A stretch of 64,000 bases of DNA, taken from Octopus vulgaris. Lineage: Eukaryota. Under the pieces are notes generated by a model. The model searched no databases, was not told the DNA's origin, and saw only the letters and a program-made list of their open reading frames with translations. The translations under genes and the position numbers were made by a program. Where the stretch lies: NCBI GenBank assembly GCA_951406725.2, contig OX597828.1, positions 71,176,001-71,240,000 on the forward strand, read 5' to 3'. Below are positions 10,000 through 53,333 of the stretch, in pieces; within the stretch, counting starts at the first letter, position 1; every line of letters begins with the position of its first letter.

Positions 10000-10174
10000 T
10001 GATAGAAATGGTAAGACAACAAAAAAATGAAAGAGACCTCGATATTATGTAAATAGAAGAATTTATCTGTAAATATAATATGTGACAATTATTTGGTAGC
10101 CAATGATAAAACTCTGAGTTTTGGATGTCAGGGCAGAAACCCATGCTGCCATCTCTTCAGTTATCCAGCCATCG
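10000..10174 (-). mobile_element. Penelope-like pLTR-type fragment next to (TA)n
   Basis: Short non-coding element between TA/A tracts that contains a hammerhead-like fold (10105-10165). Confidence 0.45.
10105..10165 (-). ncRNA. Hammerhead-ribozyme-like motif (type I, decayed)
   Basis: GATAA-CTGAAGA-GATGGCAG..CTGACATC-C-AAAA-CTCAGAG-T-T-TTATC: helix I GATAA/TTATC, CUGANGA core, 8-bp helix II with one mismatch, near-palindromic helix III; G12 is replaced by A. Confidence 0.55.
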
Positions 10175-10210
10175 AAAAAAAAAAAAATATATATATATAT
10201 ATATATATAT

Positions 10211-10595
10211 AGGCATAGGAGTAGCTATGTGGTAAGTAGCTTGCTTACCAACTACATGGTTCTGGGTTCAGTCCCACTGCGTGGCACCTTGGGCAAGTGT
10301 CTTCTACTATAGCCTCGGGCCGACCAAAGCCTTGTGAGTGGATTTGGTAGAAGGAAACTGAAAGAAGCTCGTTGTATATACGTACATGTATATGTTTGTG
10401 TGTCTGTGTTTGTCGCCCCAACATCGCTTGACAACTGATGCTGGTGTGTTTGCGTCCCCATAACTTAGCAGTTCAGTAAAAGAGACTGATAGAATAAGTA
10501 CTAGGCTTACAAAGAATAAGTCCTGTGGTCGATTTGCTCGACTAAAGGCGGTGCTCCAGCATGGTCACAGTAAAATGACTGAAACAAGTAAAAGA
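10211..10595 (+). mobile_element. SINE family A, full length
   Basis: GGCATAGGAGTAGCTATGTGG...GGTTCAGTCCC...ATGACTGAAACAAGTAAAAGA, between (TA)n tracts. Confidence 0.85.
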
Positions 10596-10662
10596 TATAT
10601 ATATATATATATATATATATATATACATATATATATATATATATATATATATATATATATAA

Positions 10663-11088
10663 ATATATAAAAGAAGGTTTGAAAATGCAATTTTAAAGAT
10701 GTTTATTCACTTGACCGGTTTCACTTTTTTAGAAAAAGATTGTCAAAAGTAAAATGTAAAGCTTTGTATAAGCTTTGTTGTGTTAAGTACTGGTTGACAT
10801 GAAATATTAAAATACATATATACATTCTTTGATTATAATAAGAACATGTTAGAAACAGTTTACAAGGAAAAATCTTGAGAAAATATGAAACAAAAAGTTC
10901 AATAAACTGTTTTTAACATGTTATTATTATCAAAGAATGTATATGTATTTTAATATTTCGTGACAACCAGTACTTAACACAACAAAGTTTTACATTTTAT
11001 TTTTGACAATCTTTTTCTCAAAATGTGAAACCGGTTGTGTGAATAAGCATTTTTTAAAATTGCATTTTCAAACCTTCTTTCATATATA
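10663..11088. repeat. Long inverted repeat (arms about 190-200 bp, 40-bp spacer), Penelope-like inverted pLTR candidate
   Basis: AAAGAAGGTTTGAAAATGCAATTTTAAA... mirrored by ...TTTAAAATTGCATTTTCAAACCTTCTTT; spacer 10863-10902; GAAACCGGT in each arm. Confidence 0.9.
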
Positions 11089-11180
11089 TTTCCACTCATG
11101 TGGTACCTTACAACTTCACTTTGTAATATACATCCTGTATATATATATATATATACATCCTGTATATATATATATATATA

Positions 11181-11584
11181 TACTCTTTACTCTTTTACTT
11201 GTTTCAGTCATTTGACTGCGGCCATGCTGGAGCACCGCCTTTAATCGAGCAACTCGACCCTGGGACTTATTCTTTTGTAAGCCCAGTACTTATTCTATCA
11301 GTCTCTTTTGCCGAACCGCTAAGTAACAGGGACATAAACACACCAGCATCGGTTGTCAAGCAATGCTAGTGGGACAAACACAGACACACAAACACACACA
11401 CGCATATATATACATATATATGACGGGCTTCTTTCAGTTTCCGTCTACCAAATCCACTCCCAAGGCTTTGGTCGACCCGAGGCTATAGCAGAAGACACTT
11501 GCCCAAGGTGCCGCGCAGTGGGACTGAACCCGGAACCATGTGGTTAGTAAACAAGCTACTTACCACACAGCCACTCCTGCGCCT
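11181..11584 (-). mobile_element. SINE family A, full length
   Basis: Well-preserved A and B boxes, CORE-like segment and (AAAGAGT) tail. Confidence 0.85.
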
Positions 11585-13255
11585 ATAGAAGAAAGTTATA
11601 TATACAGGATGTTTATAAATTTTCTTTACAATTTCAAAAATTCAGAAAAAAATATGTTAGGATGACTCAGCAAAGTTTCTTGAAAAAACAGGCAAAGAAA
11701 TAAAAGTTTTATTAGAAACATCAGAACACTTCCATGTGAACTCCATTGGTCACACACAACCTGCTGAGTTAACCTATTTCTTCTAATTGTGAAGGTAATT
11801 TATGGACAGTGTGTGTGTCATTTTAATACTCACTTTTCCATTGCTTGCTTAGGTCAGACTGAGTCTGCTGAGACAGATTTTCTAGAGCCAAATGCCCTTC
11901 CTGCTGCCAACCATTAACTGTTACCAAGTGAGGTATTATTTCCCCATAGCTGGATATGTTTTCACGCGCACACAGACACACACTGGGCTTCTTTCAGTTT
12001 CCATCTGCCAAATCCACTCGTAAGGCATTGGTCAGCCCAGAGCTAGAGTAAAAGATACTTGTGCAAGGTGTCATACAGGGGAATTGAACCTGAAACCATG
12101 TGGCCCAGAAGCAAACTTCTCAACCACACACCCACACCTGTGCCAATATATGTATGAGAGAGAGAAGGCTGGAGAGAGAGAGAGAGAGAGAGTTTATAGA
12201 TTTACAGGGGAGGAGATGTTACCTATGACAGGTTAGCATCCAGCCCTGTGGCAAATTCATTCCTCATCTCCTTAATACAAGAATTGGAGCTAAATCTCAC
12301 TTTAGTCAGCCTTTGTGGCTTATAAAGTCATCTACTCTAGTTGTTTAGAAAATGTGAGACAACTTTGTCCCTTCATGATTCACCGATGCCAATGTGAGAC
12401 TTCAAGTCCCTTCAAGACCCAAAGTTTCTTTCCCTGACAACGGAGCAGCATTTAAATCACTTCACTGGTTAGTGATAAGATAACTGATAACGTAAAGGAG
12501 ATGCTAAAGTGGTAGACAGATGCTGCAAGGAATAGCTAAAGGTTGGGGGCTAATATGGGAGCTGGAGGGTAAAACTGAAATGTCATCAATGGAGGAAATA
12601 TTTTATCTTTAATTTATTCAGGCAAACAATTCCACCCTAAAACTGGTACTTTAGGTGTTAGTATTTCATTCCATGTTTGTATGTGGGTTTGATGGATATA
12701 GGAAGCTATAGAATTACATCAGTAATTCTACTGATACAGTATAATGATAGAGTAACAATATGTGTATGTGTGTGTGTGAACTAGAACAATTATTATAATA
12801 CTATGTGTAGAGAAGAATGAGAAATTACAGTACAAATAACAATTAACAGAATAATTTTTAAATATGTAGGGGTGTGTGAGTATGTACTCATACACACATT
12901 TTAAATGGAAGTTTTGTTATTTCTCTGGTACCCAAGGTTTCTCTGCAGACAAAGCATTTTTCAAGCCAAGTTCCAAATATGAAAGACATCCCACACACAA
13001 ATATTTATGTCACAGCATGGGAGGCAGAATTGATTATCTTTATAAAAAAAAAATCTCATCACTATTTTACTTGTTTCAGTTATTGGACTGCAGCCATTCT
13101 GGAGCATCGCTTTGTAAGGTTAGTAAAAAAAAATTACCCCAGTACTTATTCTATCAATCACTTTCACTAAATCACTAGGTCATGGAGATGTAAACAAACC
13201 AACACTGGTTGTCAAGTGATGGGATGACAAACACAAACACATGCATATGCAGATT

Positions 13256-51524: not shown

Positions 51525-51944
51525 GGCGCAGGAGTGACTGTGTGGTAAGTAGCTTGTTTACCAACCACATGGTTCCGGGTTCAGTCCCACTGCGTGGCAC
51601 CTTGGGCAAGTGTCTTCTACTATAGCCTCGGGCCGACCGAAGCCTTGTGAGTGGATTTGGTAGATGGAAACTGAAAGAAGCCTGTCGTATATATGTGTGT
51701 ATATATATATATATATATATATATATATATATATATGCGTGTGTGTGTTTGTACCCCTAGCATTGCTTGACAACTGATGCTGGTGTGTTTATGTCCCCGT
51801 AACTTAGTGGTTCGGCAAAAGAGACCGATAGAATAAGTACTGGGCTTACAAAAGAATAAGTCCCAGGGTCGAGTTGCTCGAATAGAAGCGGTGCTCCAGC
51901 ATGGCCCCAGTCAAATGACTGAAACAAGTAAAAGAGTAAAGAGT
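51525..51944 (+). mobile_element. SINE family A, full length
   Basis: GGCGCAGGAGTGACTGTGTGG...AAACAAGTAAAAGAGTAAAGAGT. Confidence 0.88.
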
Positions 51945-52225
51945 ATACCGTTGTTTCAAATGTTAACTTTTCTGTTTGCATGAATCAGATGAATTTCATT
52001 GAGGCAGATTTTCTGCATCTGGGTGCTCTTCCTGTCACCAAGCTACACCCATTTCCAAGCAAGGAATACTTCCCCGACTCCTTTAAACATGAAACTACAC
52101 TGTAGCTGGATTAGTTTGGTTTGTTTTTTGTTTTTTTTGATAAATGGAAGATTGCAAACAAACAGCACCGTTTGTGGTGGTGTAGTTTGTTTAACACTGT
52201 CAAAACAAATGAAATGTACACATAT

Positions 52226-52645
52226 GGGTGCAGGAGTCGCTGTGTGGTAAGTAGCTTGCTAACCAACCACATGGTTCCGGGTTCAGTCCCACTGCGTGGC
52301 ATCTTGGGCAAGTGTCTTTTGCTATAGCTCCGGGCCGACCAATGCCTTGTGAGTGGATTTGGTAGACGGAAACTGAAAGAAGCCTGTCGTATATATGTAT
52401 ATATATATATATATATATATATATGTGTGTGTGTGTGTCTGTGTTTGTCCCCCTAGCATTGCTTGACAACCGATGCTGGTGTGTTTACGTCCCCGTTACT
52501 TAGCGGTTCGGCAAAACAGACTGATAGAATAAGTACTGGGCTTACAAAGAATAAGTCCCGGGGTCGATTTGCTCGACTAAAGGCGGTGCTCCAGCATGGC
52601 CGCAGTCAAATGACTGAAACAAGTAACAGAGAAAGAGTAAAGAGT
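52226..52645 (+). mobile_element. SINE family A, full length
   Basis: Near-identical to 51525-51944. Confidence 0.88.
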
Positions 52646-52670
52646 ATATATAGATACACACACAAACTAG

Positions 52671-52965
52671 CACTCTGTCGGTTATGACGACGAGGTTTCT
52701 AGTTGTTCCGATTAATGTGCAAGTGGCTGAGCACTCCACAGACAAGTGTACCTTTAAAGCAGTTCTCAGGGAGATTCAGCATGACAAAGAATATGACAGG
52801 GCTGGCCTCTTTGAATTACCGGTACAATTCATCTTTGCCAGATGAGTGGATTGGAGCAATGTGAAATAAAGAGCCTTGCTCAAGAACACAATGCACTGAT
52901 GGGAATCGAACTCGCGACCTTATAGTGATGAGCCAAATACCCTAACCACTAAGCCACACAGCTTC
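52671..52965 (-). mobile_element. tRNA-derived CORE-like SINE family I
   Basis: TGGCTTAGTGG and GAGTTCGATTCC boxes, TTCTTGAGCAAGGCTCTTTATTTCACATTGCTCC body; relatives at 61034-61348 (+) and 53565-53758 (-). Confidence 0.8.
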
Positions 52966-53175
52966 ATACATATATCACCATCATTGTTTAATGTCTGTTT
53001 TCCATGCTGGCATGGGTTGGACAGTTGACTGAGTTCTGGAGAGCCAGCAGCTGCACCAGGCCCCGATCTGATTTGACAATATTTCTACAGTTGGATGACC
53101 TTCCTAATGCCAGCCACTCCGAGAGTGTTGTGGGTGCTTTTTACATGCCACCAGCACAGGAGCCAGTCAGATGGC

Positions 53176-53333
53176 TCTCCTTGTTTTTTTCTGTGTATCT
53201 TTCTGTCAAAGAGCGTAGGCTCGAAATGTAAAAGACTTGTTCTATTTCTATTCCTGAGCACCATACTAATACATTTGTTTGTTTGTACTCCACCTGCCTT
53301 CGTCTTTTGTTTATTTTCATAAAGCTTCCCGTT
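53176..53333 (+). mobile_element. Second copy of the 47582 element, with hammerhead-like variant at 53198-53235
   Basis: TCTTT-CTGTCAA-A-GAGC-gtag-GCTC-GAAA-TG-T-A-AAAGA; ends in (TA)n. Confidence 0.65.

Follow-up and report, generated by a model that had tools for sequence, protein, structure and literature searches.

Short octopus elements with Penelope-type hammerhead motifs, one of them likely a tRNA-headed SINE

Among described systems, those closest to the RNA motifs considered here are the minimal hammerhead ribozymes (min-HHRs) of Penelope-like elements (PLEs). The passages of PMC4209133 devoted to them depict an extra base after A9, a short helix I, a palindromic helix III and a U3-A8 core variant, with many unrelated families per genome, mostly as single dispersed copies. 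We analysed a stretch of 64,000 nucleotides from Octopus vulgaris (contig OX597828.1, positions 71,176,001 to 71,240,000; hereafter the window), in which four short elements, designated A to D, carry motifs with the same order of parts and share these traits and this pattern of occurrence. Multiple unrelated min-HHR families in one genome are a published pattern, and A, B and D are of an already known kind. Family C is likely a new variant, namely a short interspersed element (SINE) that joins a transfer RNA (tRNA)-like head to a PLE-type hammerhead end. Such a head is not described for dispersed min-HHRs in the passages of PMC4209133 consulted, nor is the U6 of element D among the rows compared there and, unlike the PLE min-HHRs of that study, none of the window motifs is shown beside a PLE open reading frame (ORF). 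A term search of its supplement file gave no octopus or cephalopod row. The supplement does contain rows of the same form from Lottia and Crassostrea, as well as a tandem hammerhead family of Drosophila willistoni labelled as SINEs.

Other described systems share parts of this anatomy. The schistosome repeats Sm-alpha and Sj-alpha (relevant passages of PMC6765202) resemble C in being short and non-coding, and their type I hammerhead lies behind an RNA polymerase III (pol III) promoter, which in C is a promoter-like pattern. Unlike C, which is a dispersed monomer with a min-HHR, they are often tandem and cleaved from multimers; C also differs in its fixed 3′ end ~50 nt past the cleavage site, to which an optional extension is added. 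Poseidon of Anolis (sections of PMC11167929) and the Neptune and Naiad layout (sections of PMC8557442) recall the window elements in their AT-rich or (TA)n targets and inverted 5′-truncated copy and, more tentatively, in their optional 30–40 bp tail and uncut RNA template. They differ in being autonomous, with a reverse transcriptase (RT) and a GIY-YIG domain; furthermore, Naiads lack canonical hammerheads, and the extension seen in B is ~50 nt. Animal retrozymes without long terminal repeats (LTRs) are likewise non-coding, carry type I hammerheads and are proposed to be non-autonomous PLE derivatives (portions of PMC7229834 and bioRxiv 10.64898/2026.07.22.740005), but they consist of tandem hammerhead units and yield circular RNAs, whereas the window holds no tandem copies.

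The window copy of family C comprises the following features.

14446..14690, minus strand: element C, with a tRNA-like head, an AAT tract, the hammerhead and a 3′ end of ~50 nt; copy of a dispersed high-copy family of ~260 bp
14494..14539, minus strand: hammerhead C, with CTGATGA-A, a G-C pair opening helix II, GAAA, the palindrome ACGT, UU and helix I
14620..14690, minus strand: tRNA-like head of C, with a box A-like motif (14678–14688) and a box B (14634–14643) at tRNA spacing

Family abundance and consensus were assessed by matching contigs of sequencing runs to positions 14240–14800 at 80% likeness. Four of the 24 listed runs were used: three DNA runs of three organisms and one presumed RNA run (X15), which was not counted as proof of transcription. 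Element C attracted 30,945, 28,100 and 23,049 contigs from the DNA runs and 3,759 from X15. In the DNA runs the summed depth, which is not a copy number, reached 3–9 million over 14449–14562 and 1.6–2.8 million over 14639–14676; the AAT tract was skipped in these counts. Flanking bins showed depths mostly in the tens to hundreds and ~2,000 at most. One flanking interval, 14316–14391, has a depth of ~700–2,000 in all three DNA runs, which suggests a low-copy repeat fragment beside C.

The hammerhead of the window copy deviates from the consensus only at G12, which is A at position 14506. In all four runs the majority letter at this site restores G12, with 72, 75, 77 and 86% of the depth. At all other core and helix positions the share of differing letters stays below 20%, and the other change within the motif falls in loop II, at 14519. 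Thus, the majority of family C has an intact hammerhead core. C agrees point by point with the published PLE consensus, as do the snail and oyster rows of the supplement.

Several kinds of joint connect the head with the hammerhead body. At least three contigs bridge the AAT tract, one per DNA run and each reaching 31 or more letters beyond it in both directions (among 32 pieces listed; there are 86,463 others), and because each carries 10–20 differences they represent paralogues. Head and body are also linked by deletion joints that lead from 14543 and from 14568 into the head, and in the presumed RNA run a loose end at 14541 continues with the 5′ letters of the head. At the outer boundaries, loose ends share a 5′ continuation of ~18 nt beyond 14684, and the 3′ end is sharp near 14446, where the continuations are mixed (344, 455 and 362 contigs; agreement 0.47–0.48). 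A few positions further, at 14440, the loose ends of the three DNA runs have one common 30-letter extension (97, 120 and 88 contigs; agreement 0.58–0.65). This extension is at least 30 letters long and belongs to a subset of contigs, and we treat its likeness to a PLE tail as a candidate one.

The head of C, which was missing from the sequence-only account, is one of three matches in the window to a pol III A/B-box pattern at tRNA spacing. The sense strand of C has no run of four T, which is compatible with pol III transcription and no stronger indication than that. The family displays the traits of a SINE as defined in the passage of PMC3531059 used here: a length below 700 bp, no coding capacity, dispersed high copy number, mixed flanks and linkage of head and body. 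Taken together, its abundance, intact majority core, paralogous head linkage and subset 3′ extension make it likely that C is a SINE with a tRNA-like head and a 3′ end of PLE type. Because depth is lower over the head than over the body, many copies probably lack the head or carry another one. Just upstream of the hammerhead (14544–14557, minus strand) is another box B-like motif, a possible remnant of a second promoter. The other two A/B-box heads in the window, at 16918–16971 (plus strand) and 52903–52956 (minus strand), belong to another repeat family, and no hammerhead was detected behind them.

The remaining elements are these.

10008..10178, minus strand: element A, ~170 bp between (TA)n runs; single copy in the window
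10105..10165, minus strand: minimal hammerhead A, with a 5-bp helix I, CTGAAGA (10154–10160), an interrupted helix II with a long loop, and UU
10663..11087, no single strand: element B, an inverted pair with ~200-bp arms, 3′ ends outward, a ~40-nt spacer and (TA)n flanks
10709..10750, minus strand: hammerhead B left, with TTGACAA (U3-A8; 10740–10746), U.U opening helix II, GAAA, an ACCGGT palindrome and a GUC triplet
10999..11040, plus strand: hammerhead B right, the mirror, with the core as in B left and helix I broken
11088..11137, plus strand: candidate PLE ‘tail’, a ~50-nt extension of the right arm only, followed by (TA)n
47581..47778, plus strand: element D copy 1, with its hammerhead at 47612–47649 (U3 and U6 deviations), a 31-nt internal duplication and a 3′ end in (TA)n
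53182..53332, plus strand: element D copy 2, with its hammerhead at 53198–53235 (U6, A8 and a CpG change in helix III) and a 3′ end in (TA)n as in copy 1

All six hammerhead-like motif copies lie where the sequence-only reading had placed them in the window, with their parts in the order it described. Its observation that the stem sequences differ was likewise borne out, as blastn finds no significant mutual similarity among A, B, C and D (best E 0.016–0.023, over 15–24 nt). Its count of four families holds for D, whose two copies are 89% identical, and for C with its thousands of contigs; of A the window has one copy, and B is represented by a single inverted pair. Helix I is short in every copy and broken only in B right. 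Helix III is palindromic in both B copies, C and D copy 1 (ACGT in D); A has the quasi-palindrome ACTCAGAGT with a central mismatch, and D copy 2 has one CpG change. An extra nucleotide after A9 and the G10.1-C11.1 pair are present in C and D, B opens helix II with U.U, and A has the G-C pair only with a bulged C. The complete core of the PLE min-HHR, CUGANGA (or UUGANAA) with GAAA and UH, occurs in the majority of family C and in B left; the only departure from it in A is at a CpG site.

The sequence-only reading also held that every copy has at least one core substitution. This fails for B left, which scores zero mismatches because its U3-A8 is a natural compensatory pair, documented as a core variant in passages of PMC4209133 and PMC3088659; a U.U opening stem II is documented as well. 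The window has an observed/expected CpG ratio of 0.38, and its motif copies show CpG-type decay, with most of the deviations in A, C and D at CpG sites. In A, for example, G12 reads as A at 10122, following a C and thus in a CpG-decay context, and the two D copies differ by TG/CA at positions 7–8, as the decay of CG in a G8 ancestor predicts. Judged from sequence, the window copies would be mostly dead. Hammerhead D may be catalytically poor because U stands at core position 6 in both copies; the passages of PMC3088659 at hand report low activity for A6C and do not mention A6U.

The ends of the elements offer a separate line of comparison. The claim that three of the four elements adjoin (TA)n is upheld, with runs 0–9 nt from A, B and D (the ends of A are set partly by these runs and are provisional) and 1164 nt from C. 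The 3′ ends of B and of both D copies lie 0–3 nt from a TA run, whereas a TA run is found within 25 nt of 11% of the window's positions, and the two D copies end at the identical base in (TA)n. All six motif copies are continuous across the cleavage site and end 45–135 nt past it. Since every copy spans this site uncut, copying probably does not require cleavage, and the arrangement fits the Poseidon model set out below.

Element B provides the most complete resemblance in layout. Its arms, 92% identical in aligned columns, match the inverted 5′-truncated partner arrangement of PLEs, whose hallmarks in sections of PMC8557442 are an inverted 5′-truncated copy and a tail of 30–40 bp at one end; the extension on one arm of B is ~50 nt. 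The same sections name (TA)n as the target of Neptune and Naiad elements. Helix I of B left has 4 bp and is extendable to 7. Because the two B motifs lie on opposite strands, they could not dimerize within one transcript, and B fits the opposite-strand min-HHR pairs 100–700 bp apart described in part of PMC4209133. A 1,415-bp inverted match spanning 10190–11604 was considered as a single duplication and rejected: the flanking SINE copies are 88.9% identical, inside the range of 82.8–92.6% among eight copies. Elsewhere, a 136-bp imperfect inverted repeat (53972–54107; 79%) that ends in (TA)n and is single in the window recalls the layout of B, and the descriptors detect no hammerhead in it.

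Motif statistics within the window are mixed and suggestive only, and the case therefore rests on element anatomy and family data. With the initial, strict descriptor there were 0 matches free of core mismatches, 1 when a single mismatch was allowed and 3 when two were. Once widened, after the motifs had been seen, it matched exactly A, B left, C and D copy 1, against an average of 0.54 in 278 local dinucleotide shuffles. Four matches were reached in 2 of these 278 shuffles; none contained three matches with at most one mismatch, and none a match free of mismatches, as B left is when U3-A8 is allowed. With a descriptor built from the published consensus, helices of 4 bp gave 5 matches against a shuffle mean of 0.56 (1 of 137 shuffles reached 5), and helices of 3 bp gave 7 against 4.1, a number reached by 19 of 138 shuffles. 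Rfam reports no hammerhead in the window among 145 matches at E up to 1.

Several further candidates were dismissed as hammerheads or regarded as doubtful, one (16677–16726) because it lies inside a coding exon and four (44195–44235, 21437–21485, 57083–57131 and 50495–50549) because each has two core mismatches, a level that shuffles reach. A hammerhead-like sequence at 9313–9363 (plus strand) has two core mismatches, a 5-bp helix II and an ATAT palindrome; it may be a decayed fifth family or chance.

We consider it probable, from anatomy and family structure, that A, B and D represent PLE-type 3′ ends in short or truncated form and that pol III produces C as a transcript with an end of this type, which is copied in trans. 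The motifs, as minimal type I hammerheads, would derive from the 3′ pseudo-LTR ends of PLEs. An RNA with the uncut hammerhead and 45–135 nt behind it would be bound by a PLE protein with RT and GIY-YIG activities, which would nick AT-rich DNA and start reverse-transcribing from either of two internal positions, giving copies with or without the tail. Elements A, B and D would be short or 5′-truncated products of this PLE-type copying, and the head of C would direct its transcription by pol III. The in vitro precedent is the Anolis Poseidon protein, which, according to sections of PMC11167929, nicks AT-rich DNA, uses two internal RT start sites that explain an optional tail, and works on uncut RNA whose hammerhead cuts only in the presence of protein. 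Mobilization by a Penelope-type RT, which the sequence-only reading had also proposed, is likewise inferred.

A helix III of 2–4 bp predicts that the motif is silent as a monomer and would cut at most as a dimer or with help from protein, which again makes cleavage probably dispensable. Dimer activation is plausible by analogy, given the palindromes and the statement in part of PMC4209133 that min-HHR activity is low in dimers and absent from monomers. A 2026 O. vulgaris annotation lists, in the parts available, 31 recently active PLE families, which we cite as context only. The broader proposal of the sequence-only reading, that the octopus hosts ribozyme-bearing, non-coding elements associated with PLEs, gains from the inverted pair, the one-sided extension, the (TA)n ends, the consensus match and the intact core of C; separate non-autonomous status for A, B and D does not follow.

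A number of observations weigh against this interpretation. For family C, no (TA)n adjoins the window copy, whose flanks are AT-rich; depth over the head is roughly a third of that over the body; and neither ARAGORN nor the Rfam tRNA model matches the head. Among the motifs, the helix II register of A is irregular, B lacks the conserved G10.1-C11.1 pair, and the invariant A6 is replaced by U in both copies of D. The published-consensus descriptor recovers only C and D copy 1 of the six copies, missing A and B, and three of its five matches with 4-bp helices fall elsewhere than on the reported motifs, one of them in a coding exon. Minimum-energy monomer folds of the window copies contain no open hammerhead core, and predicted dimers pair through the palindrome for A and B left only. 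Folds of the decayed window copies were uninformative on activity. As for a source of protein, no autonomous PLE was evident by eye among the window's 81 ORFs of at least 90 amino acids, no RT or GIY-YIG Pfam match was found in six frames over the B arms, and none was found in 150 of 170 selected hydrophobic minus-strand ORFs, a scan not designed for RT. Because no ORF with RT and GIY-YIG was seen in the parts of the window examined, the copies there are not autonomous PLEs, and because no autonomous PLE was found in those parts, homology to a PLE pseudo-LTR is not demonstrated.

The competing account that survives best holds that all four elements are 5′-truncated ends of autonomous PLEs, that the head of C is a separate small repeat or marks a minor chimeric subfamily, and that there is no independent non-autonomous family. 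The relevant passages of PMC4209133 read most single min-HHRs as truncated PLEs, and for A, B and D this could equally be the case. For C, the depth of the head and the position of the AAT tract, a likely insertion target, between the two parts point in the same direction. Against this account stand the bridging paralogous contigs of three organisms, the deletion joints at 14543 and 14568 and the loose end at 14541 in the presumed RNA run. The loose ends listed mark both outer ends only, with no continuation resembling a PLE ORF upstream of the hammerhead. As an explanation of all four elements we judge it unlikely.

A retrozyme-like cycle, in which multimeric transcripts are cleaved to circular RNAs, copied by a rolling circle and reinserted, is more improbable still. 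Type I hammerheads with a palindromic helix III do mark metazoan retrozymes, according to portions of the retrozyme literature, and family C does appear in the presumed RNA run. However, hammerhead-bearing units are not tandemly repeated in the window, the element ends do not fall at the cleavage site, and the joints in C are deletions, the list containing only two short back-joints (14539 to 14466 in run X1 and 14567 to 14466 in run X5), which we leave uninterpreted. Finally, the idea that any of A, B and D resembles a hammerhead by chance, within AT-rich repeats, B for instance being a MITE-like (miniature inverted-repeat transposable element-like) structure, has very little to commend it: relaxed descriptors do give 0.5–4 matches per shuffled window and one real match in a coding exon, and B is T/A-rich with long inverted arms and TA flanks, but B left has both documented variants together with a GUC triplet, a palindrome free of mismatches and the extendable helix I in a zero-mismatch match that no shuffle produced, the deviations of A, C and D sit mostly at CpG sites, and C is excluded by its family data.

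A wider proposal built on the pol III-transcribed, PLE-copied reading of C is offered tentatively, as a possibility we would not yet favour. Family C could be among the most abundant repeats of its lineage and represent an undescribed class of SINE, in which a pol III tRNA-derived head is joined to the pseudo-LTR end of a Penelope element, its minimal hammerhead intact, and which depends on the RT of a PLE rather than of a long interspersed element (LINE). Its many intronic and pol III transcripts could then pair as dimers via the ACGT palindrome and cleave RNAs of the host in trans, and D would have come by drift to a U6 core, retained solely for a fold that binds RT.

Abundant tRNA-derived SINEs of octopus, OK, OR1 and OR2, were reportedly described by Ohshima and Okada in 1994. 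Of these, OR2 is named in part of PMC4758252. Family C, which we liken to these by description only, may be OK, OR1 or OR2, or may be catalogued in Repbase or Dfam without its hammerhead having been noticed. In the literature passages covered on hammerheads, Penelope, SINEs and octopus or other cephalopods, no tRNA-headed cephalopod SINE with a min-HHR is described. A giant squid paper counts 235 Rfam hammerhead matches and goes no further, and the families in the 2026 O. vulgaris annotation include active PLEs and unclassified SINEs, with ribozymes unmentioned in the parts available.

As originally stated, the observation of four unrelated motif families extends a known pattern to one more host, and its interest is modest. 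By definition SINEs are the partners of LINEs; if family C is a very high-copy SINE whose 3′ end is of Penelope type, it would show that PLE enzymes mobilize pol III RNAs in trans. It would also offer tens of thousands of natural variants with which to ask whether selection acts on PLE hammerheads for their cleavage or solely for a fold that RT recognizes. Sections of PMC11167929 show cleavage to be dispensable in vitro, and the conserved core of C against the U6 of D provides a direct contrast for this question.

The genomic setting of these elements includes two exons of one gene.

16665..16778, minus strand: exon of a UAA-family nucleotide-sugar transporter, 114 nt with AG and GT splice sites (PF08449, E 2.2e-06)
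within 31359–31478, minus strand: earlier exon of the same UAA-family transporter gene, ~14.6 kb away (PF08449, E 1.9e-04)

From this arrangement, A, B left and C probably lie in the next intron of the transporter gene, sense to that gene; the 59 selected ORFs below 16650 yielded no later transporter exon. For D, exact-pattern searches of metagenome and viral contigs gave 0 matches. A peptide resembling cytochrome b at 18493–18591 (minus strand; PF00033, E 4.3e-05, below the curated cut-off) may reflect a small mitochondrial insertion.

The window is dominated by a different SINE-like family of ~390 bp, present at 10210–10600 and more than 20 other places, with a tRNA-like start, an internal microsatellite and full copies 83–93% identical. 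No hammerhead was found in this family, and exact-pattern scans for it in metagenome and prokaryote contigs gave 0 matches. Two low-complexity tracts also stand out, a 4.5-kb degenerate purine-pyrimidine microsatellite at 32700–37170 and a 1.2-kb tandem array with a ~33-bp unit at 19827–21070, and these account for spurious Rfam microRNA matches and for long low-complexity ORFs.

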